64,000 bases of DNA from an uncultured Pseudomonadota bacterium (GCA_964568625.1 CAZMQG010000002.1:9237-73236); one strand, 5' to 3'; counted from the stretch's first letter, positions 27,645 to 50,168 are shown. Notes: generated by a model from the letters alone, not told the origin. Made by a program: numbers and translations.

Positions 27645-27705
27645 TTATACTGAATTTGTTTTGGTCTAATTTATTTTAGTGTTAAGAGAAAAAGGGAGAA
27701 GTGAG

Positions 27706-28917
27706 ATGAATGGATCTTTTAGACTAGGCATGACGATTATGTTACTGTGTTTGATAAAGGTGCCTTTGGCTTTTGGTGGCATCATATTTTCAAACCGCAG
27801 TTCGTCGATGGTTGTCTTGCCTAGCGGCAAAATATATCTTGGACAGACTGATTCAATAAAAGGTTGGAGCCGAGAATCAATTGTCCAGGCTGTTGGAAAT
27901 AATTCGCCGTTTGATTGGGATCCTAGTTGGACAGGAGAGAATGTTGTTACTTTTGCAACAGCTCCAGTACCGGATTTACCCAAAAACCCTGGCGATATAA
28001 CTCTCAATGTTTATTACCATGAGTTAACGGAAGATCTATTTCTTGGTCCAAATCGAAATTTAATAATAGAACCGTCAGAAAATTCAGACTACACATTTAT
28101 AAATGGAAATGGGTATGCAATAAATTTGGCAGAGGGCTTCCAAAATTTAATTAAAATTGCGCCTGGCCAAACAGTAGAGATAGGCAATGCTGTTATAAAA
28201 AATTACGATGAATTTGGAATTTATTTTGGCTTAGGTTCTAGCCTAAGTTTCCTAAATTCTTCAATAGAGATAACAGATAATCGAACATTTTCTAAGCCGT
28301 TGAATCTCTCAGGAGAGGTTTCAATAAATGGATATGGATACACTGTAATTTTAAATTCTAGCTCAGGCATAAATGTAACAACAGGGCAATTGAGTATAAA
28401 TAATTTAACTTTATATGGTGTGCAGGGACAAAATGTAAGAAGTCTAAACGATAGCTGTAATATCATTTTACAAAACTGCAATATGTTCTTAACTGATGAC
28501 TACAGATTTAAGTTTGGTGGGTTGCAGATGATTGATTCGAAAATTTCAGGATTTCATGGTTTTAATTACGAATCATCATTAACCTGTTCAATTTCGCGTA
28601 CAGTTACACTTGATACAGGTGTGACATTTAGTTACAGTCCAATAACTGACAATCGTGATCTGATTTATATGGACAGCAGCTCAAGGCTTTATTTAAATGG
28701 ATGTACGTTAAGTTCATCTCTTACCGGAATGCGTTTGACTACAGGTACCGTCATAGTTGATGGTCAAAACAAGATTTATAATGATGGGGCCTTAAGTGCT
28801 TCACAGGCAGTAATGTTTGGATCTGGTGATGTAAGCAAAGATCTTGGAATTGAGATTCTTCCCGGGGCTAAACTTGAATTGATGTCTGGAATATTTGTTT
28901 ATGCGAATGTGGGTTAG
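27706..28917 (+). CDS. Secreted beta-helix-like scaffold protein without propeller insert (array member 0)
   Basis: ATG 27706 after GGGAG; signal peptide; INGNGY/INGYGY repeats; C-terminal half aligns with the scaffold of downstream genes. Confidence 0.7.
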   Translation: MNGSFRLGMTIMLLCLIKVPLAFGGIIFSNRSSSMVVLPSGKIYLGQTDSIKGWSRESIVQAVGNNSPFDWDPSWTGENVVTFATAPVPDLPKNPGDITLNVYYHELTEDLFLGPNRNLIIEPSENSDYTFINGNGYAINLAEGFQNLIKIAPGQTVEIGNAVIKNYDEFGIYFGLGSSLSFLNSSIEITDNRTFSKPLNLSGEVSINGYGYTVILNSSSGINVTTGQLSINNLTLYGVQGQNVRSLNDSCNIILQNCNMFLTDDYRFKFGGLQMIDSKISGFHGFNYESSLTCSISRTVTLDTGVTFSYSPITDNRDLIYMDSSSRLYLNGCTLSSSLTGMRLTTGTVIVDGQNKIYNDGALSASQAVMFGSGDVSKDLGIEILPGAKLELMSGIFVYANVG

Positions 28918-28986
28918 TTTAACGTCAACTTGATAATTTCAACATTTGATTACATGAATTTGGATAATATATCTGGAATAGTTTAT

Positions 28987-29024
28987 TGAGCCCGCCGTAG
29001 CGCACTAGCACGAAGGTGGGCTCA
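28987..29024. repeat. GC-rich palindromic hairpin upstream of the propeller genes
   Basis: tgagcccgcc-N18-ggtgggctca (10-bp stem, one G-U); core resembles 8082-8107 and 59168-59194. Confidence 0.65.
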
Positions 29025-29142
29025 GCCCAAATATATTTTAGGGTCAATTTAAATAATTATCCCTGTAGGTAAAGTGTATTGAAATATAAAAATTTCTGTT
29101 CAAAATCGATCATGACAATTTCATGTCAGCTGGAGTAGTAGT

Positions 29143-32100
29143 ATGAAATTTCTGGTAACTGTATTTTGTTTTGTTTTAAATTTTTTGTTTTTTATTCAAC
29201 ATATATTTGCAACTTCTATTGATGGAACAACTTCGGTTAAGTACCTGACTACAAACCAGGTTTTTAGGAATGGAGAATATGCACGAGGATATGTAAAACT
29301 TACATCAGGCGCAACAATATTAGAGAATGCAGGGGTATTTTTTGATATAAATGAGCTACTTTCCGGAGGACTTGATTTACGTTCTACCGGTACATTGAAT
29401 CTTCAGAGTGATCTTCATCTTGATCCAAATTTTACACTCTCAGGAAGTGGTATCATCTGTGGTAATAATAAAACTATTTTCATGAATGAAAATCTAACTA
29501 TTCCGGATAATTCTGTTATTCATATAAATTCAAATACGATAATTGATGGGCAGGGTAAGGATTTGATTTTTGGGAGAAGAAGTAAGCTTTTTGTGGACAC
29601 AAACGTGACGTTGACACTACAAAATATGCGAATTATACAAAACTTTAATGATTTCTCTGATCCATGTATCAGACTTGCAGCGTTTCAAAGTAAGCTCGCT
29701 TTAAACGATGTTGAGCTTGCATTGTCACAAGATTTTTTGTTTTCGCAGGGCCAACTTTTTGTTCATGGGGATGTAGCAATAACTGGATCGGCAGCTTTTG
29801 TATACAAATCTACCCAACATAGCTTTATAACACCGGATAGCAGATTCTATTTCGATGTAGGAACGACTTTTTCAGTTACTCCCGCAACAATAACAGACTG
29901 CAAATTTGATCAGACCCCATCTTACATATCAAATAATTTCATTTTAATGTCAGATCAAACATCAAAATTACATTTGAATGAATGTTCTTTACAAACTACG
30001 CTAACAGGTTGCAGATTTACGAAAGGAACTGTTGATTTTGATAATAAATGTTTTTTAAGAAGTAATAGTTCAATCACCCTAGCTTCATCACCATTGAATA
30101 TTTTAGCTTCTAAGCTTCTTTCTCTAGCTGCTTCTACGGATGATTTTCCAAGTAGTGTCTCATGGTCCCCTAATGGAAGTTATTTGGCCGTGGTAAGTAA
30201 AAATGCAAATTCATTACAGATTTTTAACTCTACCACACTTGTCCAGATCGGTAGCGATGTAGTTACCGGATCTTCTCCAGTCTCTGTTTCATGGTCAAAT
30301 ACAAGTACACAGCTTGCCGTTGCAAATTCCGGAGATAACACTGTCAAAGTATTTAATTTTACGGGATCTACGACACCATCTCTTTCAGTAAGCAAATCTA
30401 CCGGAACAACTCCATCGTGTTGTGCTTGGTCGCCTTATGGAAGTTATGTAGCAGTAACTAATTCAGGTTTAAATAATTTGCAAATTTTTAAAGCATCGAC
30501 TTTAGCGTCGATTGGAAGCGTTTCTACAGATATAACTCCATCATCTGTTGCCTGGGCACCGGGTGATAGACTTTTGGCTGTAACCAATTCAGGTTCAAGC
30601 ACTTTGCAAGTTTTTTCATTTAGTGGATTTGGAAATCCAGTACAAGTAGCAAGTGGGGGTACAGGTTTTGGCCCTTCATCTGTTACTTGGGCCCAAAATG
30701 GAATGTTTTTAGCGGTTGCTAACAAAAATTCTGATACAGTGCAAACATTTTCATTTAACAGTAGTTACGCATTGAGTCTTATTGATACGACTTTAACCGG
30801 TGATGAACCTGTTGCAGTGGCTTGGAAGATTGATGGAACTTCTTGTGGAATTTTAAATTATACTTCAAATACCTTACAAACTTTGCCATTCAATAATCAA
30901 AGTGCATTGGCTAAAGTGGGTAGTGATGTGAGTACTGGGACTAATCCAGTTTCGGTCTCATGGTCATATGATAGTAAATATCTTGCAACAGTTAAACGAG
31001 GAGATTCTGGTCCATTAGTACAAGCATTTTCATTTACTGGGACCACTCCAAATTTACTAGGTTCTGCGGCTACCGGTAGCGCTCCCTCTTCAGTATCATG
31101 GTCTTCGCAAGATAAATTATTAGGAGTGGTTAATCAAGGTTCTAACACATTACAAATATTTTCAGTTGGAGGTTCTACTCCAACTCAAATAGGAGGTTAT
31201 GCAGACACAGGGACTTGGGCTTATCCAGAATCAGTATCATGGTCACCCAATAATAATTTTATTGCTGTAGCAAATTACAGTGCAAATACTCTACAAGTAT
31301 TTGCATTTAACGGTTCTAGCACTCCAACTCAAGTTGGAGGTAATGCTACAACTGACACTGGTCCAAGATCGGTATCATGGTCTCCAACTGCCAACTTCAT
31401 TGCGGTAGTTAACCAATCCAACGGTACGTTACAGGTATTTTCATTTGATGGGTCTAGTACTCCAACCCAGGTTGGTGGTAATGTAATAGTTGGCGTTGAT
31501 ACAATGTCTGTAACATGGTCGCCTGATGGGAACTTTATTGCGGTTATTAATAGCCCTTCATATCCCACTCTTGGAAACTTAAATATATTTTCATTTGATG
31601 GAATAAATACGCCAGTTCAAGTTGGAGGTAGTGCAAATACGGGGAACACTCCGATGGATGTCAAATGGTCACCCGATGGAAGTTTTATTGCCGTAGCTAA
31701 CATGAATTCTCATGATTTGCGAGTGTTTTCATTTGATGGAATTAATACGCCAACTCAAGTTGGAGGCAATGCTGCCGCAGGGACTTATCCAACCACGCTG
31801 TCTTGGTCATCGGATAGCCAATTTATTGCTGTGGGAGCAAGATTCTCTGCATCAGTTGGTAAATTGGAAATATTTTCATTTGATGGTATTAACACTCCAA
31901 CTAAAGCTGTCAGTGATGTATCACTCAGTGAAGTTCCGAATTCCTTATCATGGTCCCAGACTGGTGATTTTATTGCCGTGGTTTCGTATGCTAACGTATT
32001 ACAAGTATTTTCATTTGATGGCATTAACTCACCAACTCAGGTGGGTAGCGATGTAGGCGTTTGGTCTAGCCCTACATGTGTAGCTTGGTCTCCTAATGGT

Positions 32101-34047
32101 AATTTTATTGCTATGGTTGCGGCGTATGGTAAGTTGGGAGTATTTTCATTTACGGTAGCACCAGTTCAGGTCGGAATTGTATCTACAGATAATGGTCCGA
32201 TTTCAGCATCATGTTCTCCAGTAAGTAATTTTATTGCTGTAGTTAATTCTATAAATACGTTACAGGTGTTTTCATTTAATAGTTCCAGCACTCCAATTCA
32301 AGTAGGTAGCAATGCAGCTACAGATTTATACCCGGACTCAGTATCATGGTCGGCAGATGGCAAATTTATTGCTGTAGTAAATTACAGTTCACATAACCTA
32401 CAAATATTTTCATTCAACGGTTCTAGCACCCCAACTCAAGTTGGAAGCAATGTTACAACCGGACTTAATCCGTCTTCAGTATCTTGGTCTCCAACTTCCA
32501 ATTTTATTGCGGTAGTTAATCAAACCAGTGGGACGTTACAAATATTTTCATTTAATGGAACCAGTACCCCAATCCAAGTTGGTGGAAACGCAACTACAAG
32601 CAGTACCCCAAAGTCGGTATCTTGGTCATCTGATGGGAGATTTATTATTGTTGCCAATTACGCATCAGACACATTGCAAATATTTTCATTTAACGGATAC
32701 GGTACGCCAACACAAGTTGGTACCAGTGTGGGTACAGGGCTTGCACCAATTTCTGCATCATGGGCACCAGATTCCAAATACATTTCTGCAGTAAATTTCA
32801 GTTCAAATACGTTACAAGTATTTTCGCTCAATGTTGTTGGAGACACTGATCCAATTAGCCAGACTCTTTCTACAAACAATGGACCCTCTTCTATTTCGTG
32901 GTCTTCATCTGGTTATGCGGCTGTTGTTGATTCTAATTCGGATACGCTGGAACTTTTTTTTGCACCCGGTTCTGACCCTAATCCTAGCTCGGTTTCATGG
33001 ACTGCAGATGGAAGATTTGTTGCAGTAGTGGGTAGAAGTGCAGGAATATTACAAGTATTTTCTTTTAATGGGTCCAGCACCCCAATAGTTGTAGGAAACC
33101 AAGTAACAACAGGTACAAGTCCAAATTCAGTCTCATTTTCATCTGATAGCAGATTTATTGCTTTAGTTAATCAAGGATCAAATACATTGCAGGTATTCTC
33201 ATTTAACGGGACAAGTACTCCCGTGCAAGTTGGTAGTAACGTAACTACCAGCACCTCGCCTAGCTCAGTAGTTTGGTCACCTGACGGTAAATTTCTTGCA
33301 GTAGTTAACTCGGGGACAAACAGATTACAAGTCTTTTCATTTAACGGATCAAGCACTCCAACGATAGTTGGTACTTATGCAACTACTGATACCAACCCAA
33401 ACTCAGTATCCTGGTCTCCTGACGCAAGATTTATTGCTGTCGCCTGTTCAGGAACAAATAGACTACAAGTATTTTCATTTAACGGATCAAGTACTCCAAC
33501 AATAGTTGGAAGTTATGCAACCACCGATCCCAACCCAAACTCAGTGTCATGGTCCCCTGACGGAAGATTTATTGCTGTAGCCAATTATGGATCTAATAGT
33601 TTGCAAGTATTTTCATTTAACGGATCAAGTACCCCAACAATAGTTGGAAGTTATGCATCTACCGATAGCAATCCCGACGCATTATCATGGTCTCCTGATG
33701 GTAGATTTATCTCTGTTGTAAATAGAACATCAAATACGCTTCAGGTTTTTGCATTTAATGGAACAAGCTCACCAACTCAAGTTGGAGACAGCTTCTCCAC
33801 AGGTACCACTCCTTATTCAGTATCCTGGTCTGCAGATGGCAGATTTGTTGCCGTTGTTAATTATGGCTCTAATACATTGCAGATATTTCAAGCGGATTAT
33901 ATAACCGATAGGACAACTCAAGCGATGTCAAATGGAATTGTATTTGGTAAATCTGTACTGGGTGTAAATTATGATCCATCGGTGAACCTATTAGCAGGAA
34001 GTAATGTTTTAATTGACGGTTTATTAAATTATGATTGTGTTATTTAA
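29143..34047 (+). CDS. Secreted scaffold plus WD40-like propeller protein, 28 blades (array member 1)
   Basis: Signal peptide, SIDGTTSVKY domain, 28 counted PxSVSWSPDGxFIAVV-type repeats, ends NYDCVI. Confidence 0.85.
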   Translation: MKFLVTVFCFVLNFLFFIQHIFATSIDGTTSVKYLTTNQVFRNGEYARGYVKLTSGATILENAGVFFDINELLSGGLDLRSTGTLNLQSDLHLDPNFTLSGSGIICGNNKTIFMNENLTIPDNSVIHINSNTIIDGQGKDLIFGRRSKLFVDTNVTLTLQNMRIIQNFNDFSDPCIRLAAFQSKLALNDVELALSQDFLFSQGQLFVHGDVAITGSAAFVYKSTQHSFITPDSRFYFDVGTTFSVTPATITDCKFDQTPSYISNNFILMSDQTSKLHLNECSLQTTLTGCRFTKGTVDFDNKCFLRSNSSITLASSPLNILASKLLSLAASTDDFPSSVSWSPNGSYLAVVSKNANSLQIFNSTTLVQIGSDVVTGSSPVSVSWSNTSTQLAVANSGDNTVKVFNFTGSTTPSLSVSKSTGTTPSCCAWSPYGSYVAVTNSGLNNLQIFKASTLASIGSVSTDITPSSVAWAPGDRLLAVTNSGSSTLQVFSFSGFGNPVQVASGGTGFGPSSVTWAQNGMFLAVANKNSDTVQTFSFNSSYALSLIDTTLTGDEPVAVAWKIDGTSCGILNYTSNTLQTLPFNNQSALAKVGSDVSTGTNPVSVSWSYDSKYLATVKRGDSGPLVQAFSFTGTTPNLLGSAATGSAPSSVSWSSQDKLLGVVNQGSNTLQIFSVGGSTPTQIGGYADTGTWAYPESVSWSPNNNFIAVANYSANTLQVFAFNGSSTPTQVGGNATTDTGPRSVSWSPTANFIAVVNQSNGTLQVFSFDGSSTPTQVGGNVIVGVDTMSVTWSPDGNFIAVINSPSYPTLGNLNIFSFDGINTPVQVGGSANTGNTPMDVKWSPDGSFIAVANMNSHDLRVFSFDGINTPTQVGGNAAAGTYPTTLSWSSDSQFIAVGARFSASVGKLEIFSFDGINTPTKAVSDVSLSEVPNSLSWSQTGDFIAVVSYANVLQVFSFDGINSPTQVGSDVGVWSSPTCVAWSPNGNFIAMVAAYGKLGVFSFTVAPVQVGIVSTDNGPISASCSPVSNFIAVVNSINTLQVFSFNSSSTPIQVGSNAATDLYPDSVSWSADGKFIAVVNYSSHNLQIFSFNGSSTPTQVGSNVTTGLNPSSVSWSPTSNFIAVVNQTSGTLQIFSFNGTSTPIQVGGNATTSSTPKSVSWSSDGRFIIVANYASDTLQIFSFNGYGTPTQVGTSVGTGLAPISASWAPDSKYISAVNFSSNTLQVFSLNVVGDTDPISQTLSTNNGPSSISWSSSGYAAVVDSNSDTLELFFAPGSDPNPSSVSWTADGRFVAVVGRSAGILQVFSFNGSSTPIVVGNQVTTGTSPNSVSFSSDSRFIALVNQGSNTLQVFSFNGTSTPVQVGSNVTTSTSPSSVVWSPDGKFLAVVNSGTNRLQVFSFNGSSTPTIVGTYATTDTNPNSVSWSPDARFIAVACSGTNRLQVFSFNGSSTPTIVGSYATTDPNPNSVSWSPDGRFIAVANYGSNSLQVFSFNGSSTPTIVGSYASTDSNPDALSWSPDGRFISVVNRTSNTLQVFAFNGTSSPTQVGDSFSTGTTPYSVSWSADGRFVAVVNYGSNTLQIFQADYITDRTTQAMSNGIVFGKSVLGVNYDPSVNLLAGSNVLIDGLLNYDCVI
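33334..33747 (+). repeat. Intragenic 138-bp (46-aa) tandem repeat, 3 near-identical units
   Basis: ttttcatttaacggatcaag recurs at 33334, 33472 and 33610. Confidence 0.85.
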
Positions 34048-34068: not shown

Positions 34069-37000
34069 ATGACAATAAAAAAAAATCTACTTGGCTTTGT
34101 AGTAACTTTTTTGGTTATTCCACACACCTTGTTTCCTTCTTCTATAGATGGGACTACTTCAGTAAAATATCTTACGAAAAATCAGGTTTTTAGAGATGGA
34201 GAATACGCGCGAGGTTATGTAAAATTTAAATCAGGAGCAACAATTTTAAGTTCATGTAGTGCATTGTTTAATACGCAGGAACCGCTTGAAGGTGGACTTG
34301 ATTTACGTCAAACGGGAGCACTTAGTCTTGAGGGTCCCATTTATTTTGATTCTAATTTTACACTTTCTGGAAGTGGGATAATTAAGGGTAATGGGAAAAT
34401 AATTTTTTTGAATGGAAATTTGACCATTCCGGATAATTCAATAATTCATGTAAATTCAAATACAATAATTGACGGGCAGGGTAAAAATTTGATTTTTGGA
34501 AAACGGGGGAGAATTTTTGTTGATACAAATATTACATTAACGCTTCGTAATATGAAGATTGTTCAAACTTATAACGATTTTTCCGATCCGTGTATCAGGC
34601 TTGCGGCTCTAAGAAGTAATCTTACTCTTGATAATGTTGAATTGTCTTTGTTTCAAGATTTCTTATTCCCTGAAGGGCAACTCTTTATTCATGGCGATGT
34701 TGCCGTAACTGGAACTTCGGCCTTTATTTTTCAGTCTACTCAGCATACATTTATCGCTCCAGAAAGTACTTTTTACTTTGATATAGGAACCACATTTTCA
34801 GTTGTGCCTGCAACTATAACCGATTGTGGTTTTGACCAATGGCCTACTTACTCATCAAGTAATTTTGTTGTAATGACAGATGCAACATCAAGGTTATGTT
34901 TGAACGAGGCATCTCTATGTTCCACTCCAACTGGTTCTAGGTTTGCAAAAGGCACCGTAGAATTTGAAAATAAGTGTTTTATAAAAAGCAACAGTGCTAT
35001 TGATTTGCCGTCTCCTTATCTCGTTGATACTCTTCAATATGTACAAACCGGCAACTGGCCAGTTTGTGTGGATTATTCTCCTACCGGAAGTTATGTTGCG
35101 GTTGTAAATAGAACTTCAAATACATTGCAAATCTTTGATTCTGTTACATTGGCTCAAATTGGAAGTGACGTAATCACTGGAAATACACCCGTATATGTTT
35201 CTTGGTCAAATACAAGCACCCAAATTGCTGTTGCAAATTCAGGAGATGATACAGTTAAAGTATATAATTTCAATGGATCTAGTACCCCAACTCTTTCAGC
35301 AAGTGCATCTACAAATTCACAACCATCATGTGTTGCATGGTCACCTTATGGGAAATATATCGCTGTAACAAATTCAGGATCTAATTCTTTACAAGTTTTT
35401 AAATCAGATACACTTGCTCAAATTGGTAGCAATGCAACTACTGACAGCAACCCTTCTGCGGTTTCATGGGCTCCAGGCGATAGGCTTTTGGCTGTAACAA
35501 ATTCGACATCAGATACATTACAACTTTTTTCATTCGATGGGGTTGGCACACCGACACAAATTGCAAATCATGCTACAGATTCTACGCCATCATCCGTTTC
35601 CTGGTCGCAAAATGGAATATTTATATCTGTTGCAAATAAAATTAGCAATTCCACACAAATTTTTGCTTTTGATAGCACATACTCTTTAAATTTAATTGAT
35701 ACCATTCCCACTGATTATACCCCAACATCCATATCATGGTCTAACGATGGACGTTATCTCGCATTTGTTAATTATACCTCCAATAATTTGTGGTATGTAC
35801 CTTTTGTGGATCAAAGTTTACACACTAAAATTGGAAGTGATGTTGATACAGGTCAAGAGTTAACGGGTTTGGCATGGGCGCCTACGGAAGATTATCTTGC
35901 AGTTATATCCAAATGGGGAAGCGCATTGCAAATATATTCATTTGATGGGATAAATTCACCTGTATTGGTTCAAGCTAGCGGATCTCCATCTCCAACGGAT
36001 ATTGCGTGGTCTCCAACAGGAACATTTATTGCCGTATCTACAGATTACAATGGGAATGTTTACATATATTCGTTCGCGTCGGGGGTTTTGACTTACCGAA
36101 ATTCTTATGCAATTTCTGGTGTTACGCCTCAATCAGTATCATGGTCTCCATCCGGCGACTATTTTGCGGTAAGTGCATCCGATAGTAAATTATACATATT
36201 TTATTTCAATAAAATATCTTATGCATTAACTCTTGTTGGTAATACAAGCACAGCATCTTCATCTATTAATTCTGTATCTTGGTCTGCGCAAGAAGAGTTT
36301 ATTGCCTTGGCGGGTGGGTCCTCGGGTACATTGCAGATTTTTTCATTTACGGGTTCTAACCCCGTATTAGTTGGCAGTGTAAGTACTGGATCTAATTTGG
36401 AATCAGTGTCCTGGGCGCCAACAGGAGACTATCTCGCTGTTGCTGATTCAGGGTTTCCATCAAAACTGGAAATATTTTCATTCAATGGTTCAAATCCCGT
36501 TTTGATAAATAGTGTTAATGCAGCTCAGTGGATAAATTCAGTATCTTGGTCGCCTGATGGTAGATTTATAACCGTTTCGGATAGATATGCTTACATATTA
36601 CAAACATTTTCATTTAGTAGAAATGGAGATTTAATTCAGGTTGGTGATAATGTAGGCACCGGGTCAGGTTCTGAGCCACAAGTAGTTGCATGGTCTCCTC
36701 AAGGTAAGTTTGTTGCTGAAGTTAACTATTGGACAAAAACATTAGAAGTATTTTCATTAACGCAAGCCTCTGCTAAATTAGATGTCAGTAAAAAAATTAC
36801 TACCAACGTTAAACCTACCTCATTATCATGGTCACCAAATAATACAAATATTGCAGTTACTTCCAGAGACTCTAACGAACTACAAATATTCGAACTTGAA
36901 TATCCATCATTACTAAATCAAATTGGCGGAGGTGCTACAACCGGACTTCGTCCTACATCTGTATCATGGTCTCCTGACAGTAGATTTATTTCTTTAGTGA

Positions 37001-38073
37001 ACACTTATTCCAGTTCAATACAAGTGTTCTCATTTAATGGAAATGATTCCCCTATGTTAATTGATACAAAAACAACATTAACTGGGCCAAGTGGTGTTCA
37101 GGGCGTTTGGCCAACTGCAGCAGCATGGTCACCTGTTGGTAATTTTATTACCATAACAGCGGAAGGGAATCCTGTTCCATACCAGGGAAGTTCTTTGCAA
37201 GTTTTTGGATTTAATGGAGTTGATTCGCTAACAAGATTGGTAACTAAAGTATTCCCTTCAGAAACTCCAATAGGTGGGCTGGCTTGGTCTCCCGATGGCA
37301 GATTTTTTGCAATAGATACTTACGGGAGTATGATGAAAGTATATTCATTTAACGGAATTGATAATATTACTCAAGTTGGTAGCGATTTAATTTTAGGAGT
37401 TATCTATCCGGGAGCAATATCATGGTCACCGGACGGAAGATTTATTTCAATTGCAGCTCCAAATCTTTATTTGGGTAATGTATTTCAGATATATTCATTT
37501 GATGGAGTCAATACCCCAACAAAAGTTGGAAATGATGTTTCAACAGGAACATCACCGGCATCAGCAACTTGGTCTCCGGATGGAAGATTTATCGCCGTAT
37601 GTAACGCTTCATCGAATGAGTTGCAAATATTCTCATTCAATGGAACCGATACTCCCGTCCAAGTTGGGGGAAACGCAACCACTGAAAAAGGACCTTTTGG
37701 TGCGGTGTGGTCTCCATCAGGTAAATTTATTGCCTTAGTTAACTACTATGCTAAATCAATTCAACTATTTTCATTTGATGGAGCTAATACTCCAATATTA
37801 GTTGGAACAAGCTCAATAAACAACAATTCGAGTTCAATCTCCTGGTCGCCTGATGGGAAATTTATTGCGGTTGCTGAAGATGTTTCAGGAACCAATGGCA
37901 ATCTCAAAATATTTAAAATAAATCTTACCGCTGACAGAACTTTGCAAGCTATTTCAAATGGAGTTGTATTTGGAAATTCAAATATTGGGGCTACTTATGA
38001 CGCTACGGTTAAACTTTTAGCTGGGGCGAGTGTTAATGTAGATGGACTTGTAAATTATGATTGCGTCAATTAA
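34069..38073 (+). CDS. Secreted scaffold plus WD40-like propeller protein, 21 blades (array member 2)
   Basis: Same N-terminal domain, 21 counted repeats, ends NYDCVN. Confidence 0.85.
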   Translation: MTIKKNLLGFVVTFLVIPHTLFPSSIDGTTSVKYLTKNQVFRDGEYARGYVKFKSGATILSSCSALFNTQEPLEGGLDLRQTGALSLEGPIYFDSNFTLSGSGIIKGNGKIIFLNGNLTIPDNSIIHVNSNTIIDGQGKNLIFGKRGRIFVDTNITLTLRNMKIVQTYNDFSDPCIRLAALRSNLTLDNVELSLFQDFLFPEGQLFIHGDVAVTGTSAFIFQSTQHTFIAPESTFYFDIGTTFSVVPATITDCGFDQWPTYSSSNFVVMTDATSRLCLNEASLCSTPTGSRFAKGTVEFENKCFIKSNSAIDLPSPYLVDTLQYVQTGNWPVCVDYSPTGSYVAVVNRTSNTLQIFDSVTLAQIGSDVITGNTPVYVSWSNTSTQIAVANSGDDTVKVYNFNGSSTPTLSASASTNSQPSCVAWSPYGKYIAVTNSGSNSLQVFKSDTLAQIGSNATTDSNPSAVSWAPGDRLLAVTNSTSDTLQLFSFDGVGTPTQIANHATDSTPSSVSWSQNGIFISVANKISNSTQIFAFDSTYSLNLIDTIPTDYTPTSISWSNDGRYLAFVNYTSNNLWYVPFVDQSLHTKIGSDVDTGQELTGLAWAPTEDYLAVISKWGSALQIYSFDGINSPVLVQASGSPSPTDIAWSPTGTFIAVSTDYNGNVYIYSFASGVLTYRNSYAISGVTPQSVSWSPSGDYFAVSASDSKLYIFYFNKISYALTLVGNTSTASSSINSVSWSAQEEFIALAGGSSGTLQIFSFTGSNPVLVGSVSTGSNLESVSWAPTGDYLAVADSGFPSKLEIFSFNGSNPVLINSVNAAQWINSVSWSPDGRFITVSDRYAYILQTFSFSRNGDLIQVGDNVGTGSGSEPQVVAWSPQGKFVAEVNYWTKTLEVFSLTQASAKLDVSKKITTNVKPTSLSWSPNNTNIAVTSRDSNELQIFELEYPSLLNQIGGGATTGLRPTSVSWSPDSRFISLVNTYSSSIQVFSFNGNDSPMLIDTKTTLTGPSGVQGVWPTAAAWSPVGNFITITAEGNPVPYQGSSLQVFGFNGVDSLTRLVTKVFPSETPIGGLAWSPDGRFFAIDTYGSMMKVYSFNGIDNITQVGSDLILGVIYPGAISWSPDGRFISIAAPNLYLGNVFQIYSFDGVNTPTKVGNDVSTGTSPASATWSPDGRFIAVCNASSNELQIFSFNGTDTPVQVGGNATTEKGPFGAVWSPSGKFIALVNYYAKSIQLFSFDGANTPILVGTSSINNNSSSISWSPDGKFIAVAEDVSGTNGNLKIFKINLTADRTLQAISNGVVFGNSNIGATYDATVKLLAGASVNVDGLVNYDCVN

Positions 38074-38089: not shown

Positions 38090-41000
38090 ATGAAGCTATC
38101 AACTTTTTCATTATATTTTATTATTGTTTTCTTATTTTTTTCAAATTATGCACGTGCCTCTTCCATTGATGGGACAACATCACCGAAATATCTGACTACA
38201 AATCAGGTTTTTCATAATAATCAATATGCACGAGGATATGTAACTCTTAATTCCGGGGCAACAATTTTAAGTGATGCCACTGCATTTTTAAATATAAATA
38301 CGCCATTGAAAGGTGGGCTTGACTTACGTTCAACAGGAACTCTTAGTCTTGAGGGGGATCTTTATCTTGACACAAATTTTACGCTGTCCGGTAGTGGTGT
38401 AATAAGGGGAAATGGTAAAACTATTTTTATGAATGGGAACTTAACAATTCCGGACAACTCTGTAATTCATATAAATTCCAATTCGATAATAGATGGGCAA
38501 GGGCATGATCTTGTTTTTGGACGAAGAGGAAGAATTTTTGTCGATACAAATATTACTTTGACATTGCGTAATATGAAAATTGTTCAAAATTATAATGATT
38601 TTTCAGATCCATGTGTTCGGTTAGCTTCGTTCAAAAGTCAGTTGGCATTGAATGATGTTGAGTTTGCATTATCGCAGGATTTTTTATTTAATCAAGGTGA
38701 ATTATTCATTCATGGCGATGTAACAGTAACGGGAACTTCTGCGTTTATTTATCAATCTACTCAACATAGTTTTATAGCTTCGGATAGTATTTTTTATTTT
38801 GATAAAGCAACTACTTTTTCGGTTATTCCTGCTACTTTTACCGATTGTATGTTTGATCAATGGCCAACATATACGTCAAACCGTTTTATTGTAATGACAG
38901 ACCAAACATCAAGATTATTATTTAATGAAGCTTCACTTTGTTCAACTTCTACCGGGTGCAGGTTTGCAAAAGGTGTTGTGAATTTTGCAAATAATTGTAA
39001 CATAAAAAGCAACAGTGCGCTTGATTTGCCTCAAGCCTATATTGCAGATACAGGTGTAAATATTCAAACTGGAAGGTTGCCAGCCTATGTTGCATATTCT
39101 CCTAATGGAAATTATCTTGCTATTGTTAATAAACAGTCAAATACATTACAAATTTTTGATTCAGTTTCGCATGCACAGATTGGAAGCGATGTAATTTCGG
39201 GAAGTTTACCAGTTGCAGTTTCTTGGTCAAATACTAGTACGCAGCTTGCAGTTGTTAACTCTGGTGATAATACAGTAAAAGTATTTAATTTTAACGGATT
39301 AAGTATTCCTACTCTTTCTGTAAGCAAATTTACAGGTGCTAATCCCTCATGCGTTGCCTGGTCTTTGTATGGAAATTATATTGCCGTGACTAACGCAGGT
39401 TCTAATACTGTGCAAATTTTTAAGGCGTCGACGCTGTCTCAGGTTGGTAGTAGCGTTGTTACTGGCAGTATTCCATCATCTGTGACATGGGCTACTGGAG
39501 ATAGGTTTTTAGCAGTAACAAATATGGGATCAAATACGTTGCAAATATTTTCATTCAACGGATCAAGTACTCCAGTGCTGGCTGCAAGTAATGCTACAGG
39601 AGTTACTCCTTCATCGGTTTCATGGGCACAAAATGGTTTGTTTTTATCAGTTGCTAATAAAGACTCCAATACATTGCAAATATTTTCTTTTGATAAAAAT
39701 CATGCATTAGCTTTGATTGATACGGTTTCCTCTAATTATGAACCAATTGCTACCACGTGGACGCCCGATGGAAGTTATATTGGAGTTTCAGATCATTATT
39801 CCCAAAAAGTACAATTTTTAAGATTTTATAATCAGAGCTTGTTGTCTCAAGTTGGCGGCAATGCTACGACTGGAAGTCACCCTTACCAAGTATCATGGTC
39901 TTCTGATGGACTATTTTTAGCAGTTGTTAATGATGACTCAAATACTTTGCAGATATTTTCATTTAACGGTTCTAGTACACCTCTATTAGTTGCTTCCTCT
40001 GCAACAGGGATGTTCCCTTGGACTGTTTCTTGGTCACCATCTTTACCATCGCCAAATTATTTTCTTACTGTTGCTAATATGGGGTCAAGTTTGCAAGTGT
40101 TTTCATTCGATGGAGTGAGTACAATTACTTCGCTTGCAACGCAAGCTGTAATAGATATTTCGGCTGCATCATGGTCGCCTGTAGGTAATTTTATTGCAGC
40201 GGTTAAGCGGGATACAACAAATACACTTGCAGTATTTCATTTTGACGGAATTAGTACATTAACGCAGGTTGGGATTGATGTAGGAGCTGGAGATAATCCA
40301 TGGGCAGTGTCATGGTCGCCTGCAGGTAATTTTATTGCGGTAGTTAGCCTTTATGATAGCTTATTGCATATATTTTCATTTAATGGATCTAGTTCTCCAG
40401 TTCCAATTGCAAGCACTGCTACCGCTTCTAGTAGAAGTCCGGCCGCATGGTCTCCAGATGGAAACTTTATTGCTGTGGCAGGAAGAATTGCCCCACTTAC
40501 AGGAGTGCTACAAATTTTTAATTTTAACGGATCAGCATTTGGATCCTCTTATACAACAATTACACGAAAGCATATGATTTCTGAAACAGCAGTTTCATGG
40601 ACAAGTGATGGACGATTTATTGCGGTTGGAACAGAGTTAAGTGAGCCTGATAGTAGTACAAATATTCCGGGTATATTACAAATATTTTCTTTTAACGGAT
40701 ATAGTGAGGCAACAGAAGTTTGTTCTAGCGTTGTTGCAGGAAAGACACCAAGATTTGTATCTTGGGATCCAACCGGAAAATTTGTTGCTGTTATTAATGA
40801 GGAATCGAATACATTGCAAGTGTTTTCAATGGATGTGTATTTTGATTTGTCTCAGGCAAGCAAAAACGTTTTCACTCAAAGTAACCCTTTTTCGATAAGT
40901 TGTTCTTCTTCTGATGGATATGTTGCCGTTACCAATGGTAATTCAGATAATGTTCAATTGTTTCAATTACAATATCCTGCAATATTGACTCAAGTTGGTA

Positions 41001-42109
41001 GTGATTTGCCATTTGGCGAAGGGGTATATGAGAACCCATATTCGGTATCATGGTCTTCTGATGATAGATTTCTCTCTGTGGTTTCTTGGAATTATTTGAA
41101 GGCTTATTCATTTAACGGATTGTCAACGCCTACGCAGGTTGGATCTGCTTTAAATTGGAGTGGCAAAAATGTGTCCGTTTCATGGTCTCCATCGGGTCCA
41201 TATATTGGTTCCGTCAGAGCAGTTAATGAATCGATTGATATATTTTTGTTTGATGAAATTACAGGCCCAACTACATATGCTTTTGGATGTAGTACAGATA
41301 ATTATCCAAATTCACTATCCTGGGCTCCATCAGGTAATTTTGTTGCTGTAGCTAATCGTGATTCAGATACATTACAAGTCTTTTCATTTGATGGACTTAA
41401 TACTGTTATTTTTGGACGGACTAGACCTATTTTAGTTAGTTCAATTACAACAGGCTCTGAGCCAACATCTGTTTCGTGGTCATCTGACGGAAGATTTATT
41501 GCTGTTGTTAATGGTGGTGCTAATACATTGCAGGTATTTTCATTTAACGGTGTTAATACAACAACTTTAATTGGTGGAAGTGTGTCAACTGGATCTACGC
41601 CGACGTCAGTTTCATGGTCGCCGGATGGAAGATTTATTGCAGTCTTGAATAATGGGACAAATACACTTCAGGTTTTTTCGTTTAATGGGGCTAGTACTCC
41701 GGTACAAATTGGTGTAAGTGCTAGAACTGATAATTCTCCAAATTCGTTGTCATGGTCGGTAGATGGTAATTTTATTACAGTTGTAAATGGTGATTCAAAT
41801 ACGTTACAAGTATTTTTATTTAATGGAGCTAGTACTCCAGTACTGGTAGATGAAATAGGAGCAGGAAGAGGCCCAATATCGGTTTCATGGTCTCATTCAG
41901 GTAATTTTATTGCTGTAGCAAATTATACTGCACAGACATTGCAAGTATTTCGGGTAAACTATGTACCAAATATTTCTGAACAGGCTATATCAAATGGGGT
42001 AGTATTTGGCAATTCAAATCTTGGTTCAGATTATGATGCAACTGTTAGGCTTTTGGCAGGAAGCAATGTTATGGTGGATGGCTTAGTAAATTATGATTGT
42101 GTTATTTAA
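38090..42109 (+). CDS. Secreted scaffold plus WD40-like propeller protein, 21 blades (array member 3)
   Basis: Start moved to ATG 38090 (AGGAGAGG RBS); 21 counted repeats; ends NYDCVI. Confidence 0.85.
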   Translation: MKLSTFSLYFIIVFLFFSNYARASSIDGTTSPKYLTTNQVFHNNQYARGYVTLNSGATILSDATAFLNINTPLKGGLDLRSTGTLSLEGDLYLDTNFTLSGSGVIRGNGKTIFMNGNLTIPDNSVIHINSNSIIDGQGHDLVFGRRGRIFVDTNITLTLRNMKIVQNYNDFSDPCVRLASFKSQLALNDVEFALSQDFLFNQGELFIHGDVTVTGTSAFIYQSTQHSFIASDSIFYFDKATTFSVIPATFTDCMFDQWPTYTSNRFIVMTDQTSRLLFNEASLCSTSTGCRFAKGVVNFANNCNIKSNSALDLPQAYIADTGVNIQTGRLPAYVAYSPNGNYLAIVNKQSNTLQIFDSVSHAQIGSDVISGSLPVAVSWSNTSTQLAVVNSGDNTVKVFNFNGLSIPTLSVSKFTGANPSCVAWSLYGNYIAVTNAGSNTVQIFKASTLSQVGSSVVTGSIPSSVTWATGDRFLAVTNMGSNTLQIFSFNGSSTPVLAASNATGVTPSSVSWAQNGLFLSVANKDSNTLQIFSFDKNHALALIDTVSSNYEPIATTWTPDGSYIGVSDHYSQKVQFLRFYNQSLLSQVGGNATTGSHPYQVSWSSDGLFLAVVNDDSNTLQIFSFNGSSTPLLVASSATGMFPWTVSWSPSLPSPNYFLTVANMGSSLQVFSFDGVSTITSLATQAVIDISAASWSPVGNFIAAVKRDTTNTLAVFHFDGISTLTQVGIDVGAGDNPWAVSWSPAGNFIAVVSLYDSLLHIFSFNGSSSPVPIASTATASSRSPAAWSPDGNFIAVAGRIAPLTGVLQIFNFNGSAFGSSYTTITRKHMISETAVSWTSDGRFIAVGTELSEPDSSTNIPGILQIFSFNGYSEATEVCSSVVAGKTPRFVSWDPTGKFVAVINEESNTLQVFSMDVYFDLSQASKNVFTQSNPFSISCSSSDGYVAVTNGNSDNVQLFQLQYPAILTQVGSDLPFGEGVYENPYSVSWSSDDRFLSVVSWNYLKAYSFNGLSTPTQVGSALNWSGKNVSVSWSPSGPYIGSVRAVNESIDIFLFDEITGPTTYAFGCSTDNYPNSLSWAPSGNFVAVANRDSDTLQVFSFDGLNTVIFGRTRPILVSSITTGSEPTSVSWSSDGRFIAVVNGGANTLQVFSFNGVNTTTLIGGSVSTGSTPTSVSWSPDGRFIAVLNNGTNTLQVFSFNGASTPVQIGVSARTDNSPNSLSWSVDGNFITVVNGDSNTLQVFLFNGASTPVLVDEIGAGRGPISVSWSHSGNFIAVANYTAQTLQVFRVNYVPNISEQAISNGVVFGNSNLGSDYDATVRLLAGSNVMVDGLVNYDCVI

Positions 42110-42141: not shown

Positions 42142-45100
42142 ATGAAAATACCAAAAATAGTTTTTTATTTTACAATTGGACTGCTGTTTATTACCAAAAA
42201 TCTTGCGCCGGCTTCTATTGATGGAACAACTTCGGTTAAGTATTTAACGACAAATCAAGTTTTTCATAATAATCAATATGCGCGAGGATATGTAACGCTT
42301 AATTCAGGAGCAACAATTTTAAGTGATGCCACTGCATTTTTAAATATAAAAACACCATTTTCAGGTGGCCTTGATTTGCGTGAAACAGGAACGCTTAGTC
42401 TTGAGGGTGACCTTTACCTTGATTCTAATGTTACTCTTTCAAGAAGTGGAGTAATAAGGGGAAATGGAAAAACCATATTTTTAAATGGAAATTTAACAAT
42501 TCCGGATAATTCAATTATCCACATAAATTCAGACACCATAATTAATGGCCAAGGAAATGAGTTAGTATTTGGAAAAAGAGGAAGGATTTTTGTTGACACA
42601 AATATTACTCTGACACTGCGTAATATTAAACTTATTCAAACGTTCAACGATTTTTCTGATCCATTCATCAGGCTTGCAGCGTTTGAAAGCAATCTTGTTC
42701 TAGATAGCGTTGAAATGGCATTATCACAAGATTTCTTATTTCCCGAGGGCCAACTTTTTATTCATGGTGATGTTGCGGTTACCGGAACTTCTGCCTTTAT
42801 ATACGAATCGACACAGCATACTTTTATAGCACCTGATAGTACTTTTTATTTTGATATAGGAACAACTTTTTCTGTCACGCCTGCAACGATAACCGATTGT
42901 AGATTTGATCAGTGGCCCACTTATACGTCAAATAACTTTATTCGAATGCAAGATAAAACATCAAGCTTATATTTTAATCAAGCCACTCTTTGTACTACTT
43001 CCACGGGATCTAGATTTACAAAGGGTACGGTGGTTTTTGATAACAAGTGTTTATTGAGCAGCACCAGGGCTCTTGATTTGCCAGGAGTGTATATAGGAAA
43101 TTCGGGCCAAAGCATTCAAACTGGAATGTTGCCGAATAGCATAGCCTTTTCGCCTGATGGAGATTATATTGCTGTTGTAAACAAAAGTTCAAATACTTTG
43201 CAAATTTTTAATTCAACTACGCCATTTGCACAGGTTGGTCTTGATGTCATAACAGGAGATTCCCCCATTGCTGTTTCGTGGTCAAATACAAGTACTCAGC
43301 TTGCTGTAGTGAATTTCGGTGACGACACAGTAAAAGTATTTAATTTTGATGGAATTAGCTCCCCTGTATTTTCAGTAAGCAACACAACTGGTTCAAATCC
43401 ATCGTGCGTATCATGGTCTCCATTTGGAAATTACATTGCTGTAACAAATTCAGGCTCCGATACTTTGCAAATTTTTAAGGCATCAACATTGTCTCAGCTC
43501 GGAGGCTTTGCCGCCACTGGAGATACCCCGTCTTCAGTCGCATGGGCTACAGGAGACAAATTTTTGGCTGTTACCAATGCTGGCTCAAATACTCTGCAAA
43601 TATTTTCATTTAATGGCTCTAGTACTCCATCTTTAGAGGCAAGTAGTGCTACTGGGAATATACCGACATCGGTTTCTTGGGATCAGAATGCTTTATTTAT
43701 TGCGGTTGCAAATAGCAACTCAAACACAGTTCAGATTTTCTCATTTGACTGTAGCCATTCACTAAATTTAATGAATACAATTCTTACTAATCTTGGACCG
43801 ATTTCGATAACTTGGACTAGTAGTGGTGGCCAGATAACATTTGTGAATAATATTTCAAATACATTGCAGTTCTCATCGGTTGTAGATCAAAGCGTTCCAA
43901 TTCAGGTTGGGGGTAGTGTGTCTGTTGGGAATTCTCCATATTCAACAGCTTGGTCGCCATCTGGGAATTTTATTGCCGTTGTTAATAGTCAGTCAGACTC
44001 ATTACAGGTATTTTCATTCGATGGTGTTAATACTCCGACTCAAGTTGGGGGTAATGCATCTACGGCACCGGTTCCTTACTCGGTATCATGGTCTCCTGAT
44101 GAATGCTTTATTGCTGTTGTGAACATCAATACGGGCAAATTGCGAATATTTTCGTTTGATGGGATAAATACGCCTGTGCAAGTTGGAGGTGATGCAAGTA
44201 CAGGGGCTTATCCATGGTCAGTATCTTGGTCTCCCATGGGTAATTTTATTGCCGTTGTTAACTGGGCTGATGGCACATTGCAAGTGTTCTCATTTGATGG
44301 GGTTAATACACCTACACAGGTTGGAGGCAATGCGCCTACGGGAAGCCGTCCTGTATCAGTATCATGGTCGACCAATGGGCATTTTATTGCTGTTGCAAAT
44401 GCTATTTCAAATACGTTACAAGTATTCGCATTTGATGGGGCTAATACGCCTACACAGGTTGGAAGTCCAGCAACTACTGCATCAGTTCCGTTCTCAGTAT
44501 CCTGGGCGCCAGATAGTAGATTTGTCGCAGTTGTTAATCACGATTCGTGTGCATTACAGGTATTTGCATTTGATGGAACTAGTACGCCAGTACAAGTTGG
44601 GGGTGATGCAATTACAGGCAGTTCACCATTCTCTTGGCCAATGTCCGGATCATGGTCGTCTGATGGGCGGTTTATTGCGGTTGCTAATTACAACACCGAT
44701 TCGTTGCAAATATTTTCATTTAATGGATTTGGTACGCCGACACAAGTTGGTGGATCGGTGGCTACGGGATCATATCCTAAATCAGTAGCATGGTCACCGG
44801 CAAGCGATTTCATGGCAGTGATTAACGAGTCATCGAATACATTGCAAGTTTTTTCGCTTAATGTTGCTAGTGCATCAACACAGGTTGCGGGAACCATAAA
44901 AACTCAAACGAAACCATCATCAGTGTCATGTTCCCCAAATTCTGGCGCTGTGATTGTTTCTGGTGGTGAAAATACACTACAACTTTTTGAATATTTACAA
45001 CCATCGGTATCAGCTCAAGTTGGGGGTAATGTAACTACGGGAAGCTTTCCAGACTCAGTATCATGGGCTCCCGATGGAAGATTTGTTGCAGTTGTTAATG

Positions 45101-46113
45101 ATTCCTCAAACACGTTGCAAGTATTTTCATTCAATGGTTCTAGTGCTCCGACACAAGTTGGAGGTAATGCAAATACCGGAAGTAGGCCTGCGTCAGTATC
45201 ATGGTCACCAGATGGAAGATTTATTGCTGTTGTTAGCTATTTATCAAACAGGTTACAGGTCTTTTCTTTTGATGGTGTAAATACGCCTAGTCAAGTTGGG
45301 GCTAACGTATCTACTGGAAATGAGCCATGGTCCGTATCATGGTCACGAGGTGGAAAATTCATTTCTGTTGTTAACAGACAGGCTGGTACGCTGCAGATAT
45401 TCACATTTGATGGAATTCATACTCCAACTCAGGTTGGCAGTAACGTGGATGCCGGCTATTATCCATGGGCAGTATCATGGTCGCCTGAGGGAAGTTTTAT
45501 TGCAGTTGCTAACTTCGAAGGAAATACTTTAAGAGTATTTACATTTGATGGAATTCATACCCCAACTCAAGTTGGCAATGCTGCGTTTGCGGGATCTTAT
45601 CCATGTGTAGCGTCGTGGTCTTCGGATGGTAGATTTATTGCTGTCATTAATAGATTTTCAAATACATTGAGAGTGTTCTCGTTTAATGGCTTTGATACTC
45701 CAGTACAAGTGGGAGGTGGTGCATCAACTGAATCTGGGCCAAATGTCGCGGCATGGCTTCCTGATGGCAAGTTTATTTTTGTCGTTAACTATTCCTCAAA
45801 TACATTAGAAATATTCTCATTTGATGGATCTAGTACGCCGGTCAAGGTCGGTGGAAGCGTTTCTACTGCTAATTATCCAATGTCAGCATCATGTTCGTCC
45901 GATGGGAAATTTATTGCTGTTGTCAGTGGTAATCTAAATGTTCTGCAATTATTCAGAATTAACTATGTTTCAGAAAGATCTGCTCAATCAATTTTGAACG
46001 GAGTTGTGTTTGGAGATTCTGCGTTTGGTTTCGAGTATGACGCAGATGTGCAAGTTCTTGCGGGTTCGCATGTGCTTGTGGATGGAAAAGTAAATTATGA
46101 TTGTGTAAATTAA
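42142..46113 (+). CDS. Secreted scaffold plus WD40-like propeller protein, 21 blades (array member 4)
   Basis: Start moved to ATG 42142; 21 counted repeats; ends NYDCVN. Confidence 0.85.
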   Translation: MKIPKIVFYFTIGLLFITKNLAPASIDGTTSVKYLTTNQVFHNNQYARGYVTLNSGATILSDATAFLNIKTPFSGGLDLRETGTLSLEGDLYLDSNVTLSRSGVIRGNGKTIFLNGNLTIPDNSIIHINSDTIINGQGNELVFGKRGRIFVDTNITLTLRNIKLIQTFNDFSDPFIRLAAFESNLVLDSVEMALSQDFLFPEGQLFIHGDVAVTGTSAFIYESTQHTFIAPDSTFYFDIGTTFSVTPATITDCRFDQWPTYTSNNFIRMQDKTSSLYFNQATLCTTSTGSRFTKGTVVFDNKCLLSSTRALDLPGVYIGNSGQSIQTGMLPNSIAFSPDGDYIAVVNKSSNTLQIFNSTTPFAQVGLDVITGDSPIAVSWSNTSTQLAVVNFGDDTVKVFNFDGISSPVFSVSNTTGSNPSCVSWSPFGNYIAVTNSGSDTLQIFKASTLSQLGGFAATGDTPSSVAWATGDKFLAVTNAGSNTLQIFSFNGSSTPSLEASSATGNIPTSVSWDQNALFIAVANSNSNTVQIFSFDCSHSLNLMNTILTNLGPISITWTSSGGQITFVNNISNTLQFSSVVDQSVPIQVGGSVSVGNSPYSTAWSPSGNFIAVVNSQSDSLQVFSFDGVNTPTQVGGNASTAPVPYSVSWSPDECFIAVVNINTGKLRIFSFDGINTPVQVGGDASTGAYPWSVSWSPMGNFIAVVNWADGTLQVFSFDGVNTPTQVGGNAPTGSRPVSVSWSTNGHFIAVANAISNTLQVFAFDGANTPTQVGSPATTASVPFSVSWAPDSRFVAVVNHDSCALQVFAFDGTSTPVQVGGDAITGSSPFSWPMSGSWSSDGRFIAVANYNTDSLQIFSFNGFGTPTQVGGSVATGSYPKSVAWSPASDFMAVINESSNTLQVFSLNVASASTQVAGTIKTQTKPSSVSCSPNSGAVIVSGGENTLQLFEYLQPSVSAQVGGNVTTGSFPDSVSWAPDGRFVAVVNDSSNTLQVFSFNGSSAPTQVGGNANTGSRPASVSWSPDGRFIAVVSYLSNRLQVFSFDGVNTPSQVGANVSTGNEPWSVSWSRGGKFISVVNRQAGTLQIFTFDGIHTPTQVGSNVDAGYYPWAVSWSPEGSFIAVANFEGNTLRVFTFDGIHTPTQVGNAAFAGSYPCVASWSSDGRFIAVINRFSNTLRVFSFNGFDTPVQVGGGASTESGPNVAAWLPDGKFIFVVNYSSNTLEIFSFDGSSTPVKVGGSVSTANYPMSASCSSDGKFIAVVSGNLNVLQLFRINYVSERSAQSILNGVVFGDSAFGFEYDADVQVLAGSHVLVDGKVNYDCVN

Positions 46114-50129: not shown

Positions 50130-50168
50130 AATAAAAGGTGGGATATGTCTAATTATAGGAGATTTTTG

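Follow-up and report, generated by a model that had tools for sequence, protein, structure and literature searches.

Why should seven neighbouring genes share the same two protein segments, joined in the first gene and hundreds of residues apart in the other six? The question was raised by a tandem array of seven intact open reading frames (ORFs) at positions 27679–53393, + strand, of the window, that is, of the whole 64,000-nucleotide stretch of bacterial DNA that was analysed. The genes, designated members 0–6 (m0–m6), encode proteins of 412, 1634, 1334, 1350, 1338, 1342 and 1082 amino acids (aa), respectively. The section 27706–34047 runs from the probable ATG of m0, whose ORF opens at 27679 and ends at 28917, through the stop codon of m1 (ORF 29143–34047). 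Residues were counted from the start of each ORF, and a signal-peptide-like N-terminal sequence was found in all seven members. It was concluded that the best overall explanation, with a probability of roughly 0.8, is that β-propellers are nested in a split β-solenoid and that the proteins have a host-binding role. As for the architecture itself, m1–m6 are very probably composed of a signal-bearing β-solenoid of ~340 aa with whole seven-bladed propellers nested in one loop.

The shared parts of the seven genes were a body of ~300 aa and a tail of ~37 aa, adjoining in m0 and apart in m1–m6. An earlier note on this DNA had quoted short strings as matching halves of one domain, and all of these strings were present. 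In m0, GTVIVDGQNKIYNDG (aa 356–370) passed unbroken into ALSASQAVMFGSGDVSKDLGIEILPGAKLELMSGIFVYAN, whose end is aa 410, and the chain read from body to tail without a break. In m1, GTVDFDNKCFLRSNS occupied aa 295–309 and QAMSNGIVFG... started at aa 1593, with a gap of ~1285 aa between them; the gap was 976–991 aa in m2–m5 and ~755 aa in m6. The halves of m1–m5 were thus parted by blades, and m6 was split likewise, as the note had stated.

Homology of m0 to m1–m6 was found for both segments. The bodies were matched by BLASTP with E values of 2e-13 to 9e-9 and 25–31% identity across ~200 aa. For the tails, a hidden Markov model (HMM) built from the six window tails alone gave no significant match on m0, so sequences from outside the window were needed. 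HHalign of m0-orthologue tails against 83 post-insert tails gave a probability of 97.4% (E 1.4e-11, 37 columns) in the register that the note had proposed. An HMM made from post-insert tails outside the window scored 12.4 bits on m0 375–411, compared with 8.1 bits for the best of 2000 shuffles. The m6 tail aligned to post-insert tails with a HHalign probability of 92% (E 6e-7, 19 columns). Identity among m1–m5 was 75% in the body, 71% in the tail and 43–56% in the propellers, indicating a conserved scaffold with variable propellers. The conserved scaffold positions were mainly Gly, hydrophobic residues, Ser/Thr and Asn, plus two aspartates, and no conserved cluster of charged or catalytic-type residues was found among them.

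The segment between body and tail consisted of propeller blades. A blade HMM detected 28, 21, 21, 21, 21 and 13 units in m1–m6, respectively. Because the blade spacing of m6 was doubled twice among its 13 detected units, the true blade count of m6 is probably 14. The counts correspond to 4, 3, 3, 3, 3 and 2 seven-bladed propellers. The blade repeat was 46 aa long and the units were in d-a-b-c register, with a d-like first strand and a c strand as the last strand of the insert. The Lactonase model PF10282 (cut-off 21.7 bits) matched m1 and m2 with 298 and 192 bits, WD40/PD40-type models matched too, and PF00400 scored 75–107 bits. m6 was below the PF10282 threshold (14.8 bits) and was matched by WD40-clan models instead. 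Foldseek with the m6 insert found double seven-bladed WD40 proteins, e.g. Aip1 (1nr0, E ~1e-19), and both m6 propellers were modelled well by AlphaFold. The segments of the seven members were assigned as follows.

27706..28803, + strand: m0 signal peptide, ~75-aa N-terminal extension and predicted β-helix body (body HMM 251–384 bits).
m0 structured part: aa 104–375 of the ORF opening at 27679 (AlphaFold predicted local distance difference test, pLDDT, 88–97 from aa 104; orthologues 54–98% identical).
28804..28914, + strand: m0 tail, aa 376–412, joined to the body; predicted to make up the last rung, with four short strands (tail HMM 35–60 bits).
29143..30069, + strand: m1 signal peptide and body, aa 1–309 (body HMM 416 bits).
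30070..33927, + strand: m1 insert, 28 blade units or four seven-bladed propellers (PF10282 298 bits; blade HMM).
33928..34044, + strand: m1 tail (tail HMM 50 bits, aa 1597–1634).
34069..34995, + strand: m2 signal peptide and body, aa 1–309 (body HMM 418 bits).
34996..37953, + strand: m2 insert, 21 blade units or three propellers (Pfam, blade HMM).
37954..38070, + strand: m2 tail (tail HMM 54 bits).
38090..39016, + strand: m3 body; probable ATG at 38090, ORF opens at 38057 (body HMM 415 bits).
39017..41989, + strand: m3 insert, 21 blade units (blade HMM).
41990..42106, + strand: m3 tail (tail HMM 56 bits).
42142..43068, + strand: m4 body; probable ATG at 42142, ORF opens at 42097 (body HMM 432 bits).
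43069..45993, + strand: m4 insert, 21 blade units in d-a-b-c register (blade HMM, Tandem Repeats Finder).
45994..46110, + strand: m4 tail (tail HMM 53 bits).
46137..47066, + strand: m5 body; probable ATG at 46137, ORF opens at 46101 (body HMM 421 bits).
47067..50009, + strand: m5 insert, 21 blade units (blade HMM).
50010..50126, + strand: m5 tail (tail HMM 56 bits).
50145..51020, + strand: m6 signal peptide and body, aa 1–292, of a divergent subfamily (body HMM 200–292 bits).
51021..53285, + strand: m6 insert, two seven-bladed WD40-type propellers (Pfam WD40 88 bits; AlphaFold pLDDT 80–93 over most of the insert).
53286..53390, + strand: m6 tail, short and diverged (HHalign against post-insert tails; AlphaFold pLDDT <50).

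The longest ORFs of m3–m5 overlap the upstream gene, and the likely starts are the internal ATGs at 38090, 42142 and 46137. These were preferred because relatives begin there; the start of the relative P0064 (member-3-like, MKISRI) coincides with the proposed internal ATG of m3. Full-length orthologues of m6 were 58–95% identical, and two further relatives 43–44%. In m0, aa ~27–103 (27757–27987) contained a segment GW[ST]R[EQ]SI[VL]Q...W.P.W that was invariant in orthologues and modelled with pLDDT <50; motifs resembling this segment recurred as pre-module linkers in the multi-module relatives P0117, P0153 and P0175. At the DNA level, Tandem Repeats Finder detected 138-bp arrays (46 aa, one blade) at 33151–33776 in m1 and 45016–45375 in m4, with 72–78% matches. 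Both arrays sit in the last propeller of their gene and look like recent blade duplications.

A search of 1.84 billion cluster representatives with a body+tail profile (E ≤ 1e-3) matched 2,284 representative proteins. In the module survey, for which the best 150 of the 2,284 profile matches were used, 252 proteins were dissected into 546 modules. In 414 of these 546 modules body and tail were contiguous (tail ≤30 aa from the body), 85 carried an insert, and all 85 inserts stood at one body/tail junction. Body lay next to tail in proteins of ~338 aa (P0020, P0022, P0140 and P0128). Among these, P0020 and P0022 (339 aa, insert-less) were 55–62% identical to the m2 body, with '...FDNKVTVSS' joined directly to 'TSFTFGNASLGANYDALVKLLAGSNVFINGFVNYDCVI'. 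The contiguous modules and these close insert-less relatives bore out the claim that the propellers enter a single evolutionary domain, at a site that does not vary.

Most of the 85 inserts had the length of one, two, three or four whole propellers: 64 were 302–413 aa long, 8 were 662–805 aa and 8 were 956–1088 aa, with one each at 1158 and 1284 aa and single exceptions at 31, 61 and 456 aa. One of the 8 at 662–805 aa, a bladeless 662-aa "insert" of P0036 module 6, was rejected, because its body had been mis-paired with a tail belonging to a later module. The surveyed blade counts were mostly 7, 14 and 21; m1 had 28 and L001_1946 had 35. The latter is encoded in a related genome, whose syntenic array has an m0 orthologue of 403 aa followed by proteins of 1320, 1331, 1946 and 339 aa (the last being P0022) and an m6 orthologue of 1079 aa; the 1946-aa protein is the m1 counterpart. 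The exceptions in blade count were P0160 (1 blade) and L005_1126, whose 17 units are no multiple of seven. In P0160 (398 aa), one d-a-b-c blade (61–63 aa) occupied residues ~301–363 at the insertion site; it might be what recombinational collapse has left behind, or else might assemble with blades of other subunits.

AlphaFold (18 sequences) predicted m0 as one all-β domain covering aa 104–412 with pLDDT 88–97, the tail included (88–95). In this model the site matching the insertion point was the loop 369–377, between strands 363–368 and 378–380. All of the top 50 PDB matches listed by Foldseek for the m0 model were right-handed parallel β-helices, including polygalacturonases, TibA, SRRP, tailspikes and pectate lyases (8ikw_B, 1nhc_A, 4q1q_A, 5ny0, 1qrc).

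Coevolution was analysed by mean-field direct-coupling analysis of 476 modules (effective number of sequences 457). The separations of coupled pairs peaked at 20–30 columns and were ~20–26 throughout the body, a spacing that fits a solenoid. Among the top 150 couplings there were 23 tail-body pairs, 17 of which involved the last ~36 body columns. They formed three ladders, which connect the tail to the three strands that make up the last rung of the body (m0 numbering: 354–382, 353/358–389/391, 360–393/399, 364–399, 367–403, 368–406, 369–405), with offsets of 27–38 columns, comparable to rung-to-rung offsets elsewhere. Mapped to m2, the ladders became 293–1303, 297–1312/1314, 299–1316/1322, 303–1322, 306–1325 and 307–1328, so that coupled residues (e.g. 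297–1312 and 303–1322) lie ~1,000 residues apart in sequence. The note had held that the last ~45 aa complete the N-terminal domain; the ladders and the m0 model indicated that the last ~37 aa behave as its final rung.

Several results weigh against the nested architecture. The Foldseek matches of m0 were weak (best E 4e-3, template modelling (TM) score 0.2–0.28), and no Pfam β-helix model matched at threshold, PF20585 on m0 reaching 22.0 versus 24.3 bits. The coupling signal came mostly from contiguous modules, and parallel and antiparallel ladders were both modestly enriched in couplings, which did not discriminate between them. In insert-bearing modules, own tails ranked at the 61st percentile of swapped tails (p 2e-4) but at the 49th against the 15 closest relatives; this signal is not beyond shared ancestry and was not counted as evidence. 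When full-length m6 was modelled by AlphaFold (13 sequences), the last body rung (264–300) and the tail (1043–1082) had pLDDT <50, with a predicted TM score of 0.56. This rung corresponds to the one modelled confidently in m0, where the tail is contiguous; the m6 model speaks neither for nor against packing of the two halves. The 17 units of L005_1126 depart from blade counts in multiples of seven. Finally, the AlphaFold models, that of m0 included, were read by their pLDDT and not by coordinates.

Regarding the class of fold, the Pfam clan-model scan of the m1, m2 and m6 bodies gave no β-helix match, the Pectate_lyase_5 match in the Pfam scan was weak, no NCBIfam model reached threshold for the scaffold, and the family profile, run against PDB sequences, gave matches at chance level only. 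The scaffold is therefore worded "β-helix-like", because no sequence relative in Pfam, NCBIfam or PDB reached threshold. The β-helix assignment of the earlier note was favoured by the pairs 20–26 columns apart and by the structural class of the Foldseek matches, but not by their scores. The models and couplings give moderate support to a β-solenoid fold outside any named β-helix family.

The reading of the models by pLDDT would also suit a rival explanation, in which the tail forms a separate small cap domain beside the helix and the propellers are carried in an inter-domain linker. So would the length of the insertion loop, since no other loop of this region is as long in m0-type proteins. 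However, ~37 aa with three or four short strands would probably be too small for an autonomous fold. The three ladders onto the last rung, with offsets like those from rung to rung elsewhere, also argue against a separate domain, and body and tail were never apart in the 414 contiguous modules. A cap domain was thus considered improbable.

Under the preferred reading, a split solenoid with nested propellers, each gene would encode a Sec-signal-bearing protein built on an unannotated β-solenoid (β-helix-like) domain. The insertion loop (m0 369–377) would follow the third strand of the penultimate rung and precede the first strand of the last one. Past the insert the chain would return to the N-terminal body, on which the last ~37 aa would sit as final rung or cap. 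In WD40-type propellers the ends meet through a 'velcro' closure. By analogy, the d-a-b-c register may place the propeller ends side by side, which would suit insertion into a tight loop. A rigid solenoid stalk would then carry one to five propellers on the loop that precedes its final rung.

Gain and loss of the insert were examined through the junction types and a tree of the bodies. All 85 insert-bearing modules had a type B junction and tail ('...FDNK.T..S' ... 'TQ.lSNGivFGnS..G..YD..V.vL.GA.V.v.G'), and the m0-type (A) modules were contiguous. About eight clear B-type modules had no insert; several of them (P0140, P0063, P0067 and P0068) kept the post-insert linker 'PQAxSNG' or 'TQLSNG', which suggests secondary loss. 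On a body tree made by the unweighted pair group method with arithmetic mean, parsimony gave 12 gain/loss changes versus ~90 with shuffled states, and the root was insert-free.

The earlier note had described m0 as the empty chassis, and m0 is indeed an insert-free member of the superfamily. It might further be supposed that m0 is the local progenitor of m1–m6, since it lies directly upstream of the array both here and in the related genome. But m0 is only 25–31% identical to the m1–m6 bodies, has an A-type tail where all 85 insert-bearing modules are B-type, and bears its own conserved N-terminal extension of ~75 aa. Moreover, far closer empty forms of the m1–m5 subfamily are found in P0020 and P0022, the clustering of the bodies did not put m0 within the m1–m5 clade, and orthologues of m0 occur without the array. 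In TM6 GW2011_GWF2_37_49 (L006), the m0 orthologue (65% identical) has no adjoining array, and an m6 orthologue (P0183) is encoded away from it on that assembly. By these sequence characters m0 is a contiguous relative from another subfamily and not the progenitor of m1–m6, a role that appears very unlikely for it. Because L006 holds orthologues of m0 and m6 without the array, m0 and m6 can be regarded as conserved genes and the m1–m5 block as the variable part.

The m0 protein was 97% identical to a protein of a Candidatus Babeliales metagenome-assembled genome (MAG; JBAZAX010000003.1) and 65% identical to the protein of candidate division TM6 GW2011_GWF2_37_49. Judged by sequence, the source organism is an uncultured, amoeba-associated Candidatus Babeliales (phylum Dependentiae/TM6) bacterium. 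Known Dependentiae are obligate associates of protists. In the MAG with the 97% identical m0 (L005:11438–16841), the genes after m0 encoded proteins of 668 aa (7 blades) and 1126 aa (17 blades), both ~50% identical to any window member (29143–50129). It seems that turnover is much faster in the array than in its flanks, unless repeats were collapsed in the MAG assembly.

It was also considered whether the conserved C-terminal ~40 aa could be an autonomous sorting or secretion signal in a linear order of N-terminal domain, cargo and tag. The tail is conserved and forms the very end of all seven window proteins, and it has no structure in the AlphaFold model of m6. However, 293 of the 499 detected tails lay >100 aa from the C-terminus, between the modules of multi-module proteins (e.g. 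P0030, P0031 and P0037), 16 of them post-insert; the tail is therefore no C-terminal sorting signal. In addition, the m0 tail was modelled as strands of a single domain, and tail residues are coupled to those of the last body rung. This explanation is largely refuted and was given a slightly smaller chance than the progenitor role of m0. That mis-assembly of repeats, a frameshift or fused gene calls fake the split is of negligible probability: repeat-rich genes do assemble poorly and the 17-unit member of L005 is odd, but the seven tandem ORFs are intact and the split recurs in 85 modules from independent sources (NCBI, JGI, ENA and Logan).

The insertion site was not restricted to one type of propeller. 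A search for other cargo, which the earlier note had advised, found that the propeller which P0098 (793 aa, residues ~300–640) has at this junction is of the BNR/Asp-box kind. Pfam models Sortilin-Vps10 (53.5 bits, cut-off 33) and PSII_BNR (YCF48-like; 48.8 bits, cut-off 27) matched it above threshold. By these matches, the site in P0098 and its relatives has taken at least two propeller superfamilies. In P0240 (777 aa), an unrelated PbH1/NosD-type β-helix, a seven-bladed propeller was nested as well. Its removal in silico raised the scores from 24.0 to 35.5 bits for NosD and from 25.8 to 32.9 bits for Beta_helix. P0229, P0235 and P0238–P0240 (PF13229 matches) were excluded as family members by the body HMM and represent a separate β-helix/propeller combination. 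Because the inserts are mostly WD40/YVTN-type, that of P0098 is BNR/Asp-box and analogous nesting occurs in the unrelated P0240, we tentatively suggest, with the odds rather against it, that the loop before the last rung may be a general permissive 'socket'. It would repeatedly capture propellers, its cargo would grow or shrink by whole propellers, and these intracellular parasites would thereby have a modular display on which host-binding surfaces diversify rapidly.

The putative function is binding, by proteins that an obligately protist-associated bacterium secretes or displays on its surface, a proposal which we regard as evenly balanced. On a rigid stalk provided by the helix, the propellers would be exchangeable heads that bind ligands; tandem fast-changing paralogues, together with gain and loss of propellers, might diversify the specificity of host interaction. 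Host binding was inferred because the proteins have signal peptides, the scaffold has no conserved charged cluster and variable heads stand on a conserved stalk, and also because the array is only ~50% identical where m0 is 97% identical and the phylum has a host-dependent lifestyle. The passages of Pagnier 2015 (PMC4378268) and Yeoh 2016 (PMC4776705) found by keyword search suggest TM6 WD40/propeller proteins as secreted host-interaction factors, and the host-dependent lifestyle described there fits the host-binding reading.

Domain nesting, β-helix stalks and bacterial WD40 proteins are each already known, and the combination was compared with the nearest known systems. Right-handed parallel β-helix proteins (pectate-lyase-like fold) resemble the scaffold in being all-β solenoids, in being its sole structural neighbours among the listed matches and in the pairs 20–26 columns apart, but the scaffold had no sequence match at threshold in Pfam, NCBIfam or PDB, and the TM scores were only 0.2–0.28. 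Unlike polygalacturonases, phage tailspikes and TibA/Ag43/SRRP adhesins, it has no catalytic-type cluster or autotransporter barrel; no C-terminal β-barrel model of Pfam or NCBIfam matched, and the proteins end 37–39 aa past the last blade. In passengers of serine protease autotransporters of Enterobacteriaceae (SPATE) such as Hbp, small globular side domains project from loops of the β-helix stem. The two systems are alike in architecture, in that a β-helix stalk displays a globular domain from one loop; they differ in that the cargo here is 1–5 whole propellers (~320–1,600 aa) before the last rung, with no protease domain or β-barrel. Tandem WD40 double propellers (Aip1/UNC-78 1nr0, Pwp2/Utp and Elp2) resembled the m6 insert (Foldseek E 1e-19 to 1e-15), but their propellers dominate the protein or sit terminally, whereas those here are nested in another domain. 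The Lactonase/YVTN-type likeness of the m1 and m2 inserts (PF10282; 46-aa repeat) concerns sequence and is no evidence of lactonase activity; many WD40-clan models gave the repeats comparable scores. 

The closest published counterparts were the 'eukaryotic-like' secreted WD40/β-propeller proteins of TM6, of the same phylum and propeller class, of which the keyword-searched passages of the two TM6 papers (PMC4378268, PMC4776705) name repeat classes only, with no β-helix scaffold or nesting. Public names of the relatives were 'WD40 repeat domain-containing protein' or 'hypothetical protein', and no description of the scaffold family or of propeller nesting before the last rung was found in Pfam, NCBIfam or the searched literature. 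The analysis defines a large Dependentiae-specific protein family of at least 2,284 representative clusters, with no relative in Pfam, NCBIfam or PDB, and the nested design recurs widely in the Babeliales/TM6 group. With up to 35 blades (~1,600 aa) between coevolving halves of a predicted β-solenoid, it would be an extreme case of natural domain nesting, and a loop that tolerates very large inserts is of value for protein evolution and design. For TM6/Babeliales biology, the fast-evolving and probably exported array is a candidate host-interaction determinant.

The neighbours of the array were cell-envelope genes. Upstream were a pilin-like protein with an N-methylation motif (22866–23435) and MlaD (26085–27644); downstream were a CMP-KDO-synthetase-type cytidylyltransferase (53795–54589) and LptC (55999–56616), followed by MutL (58802–60784). 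In L010/L001, MacA/MacB-like genes were found on both flanks of the syntenic array. Among the relatives, the giant proteins P0029–P0050 (2,000–4,562 aa) had up to 13 tandem scaffold-unit stretches, and insert-bearing and insert-free modules alternated inside the single proteins P0034, P0037 and P0042. In P0170 (666 aa), the propeller was N-terminal to a contiguous scaffold domain and not nested in it.

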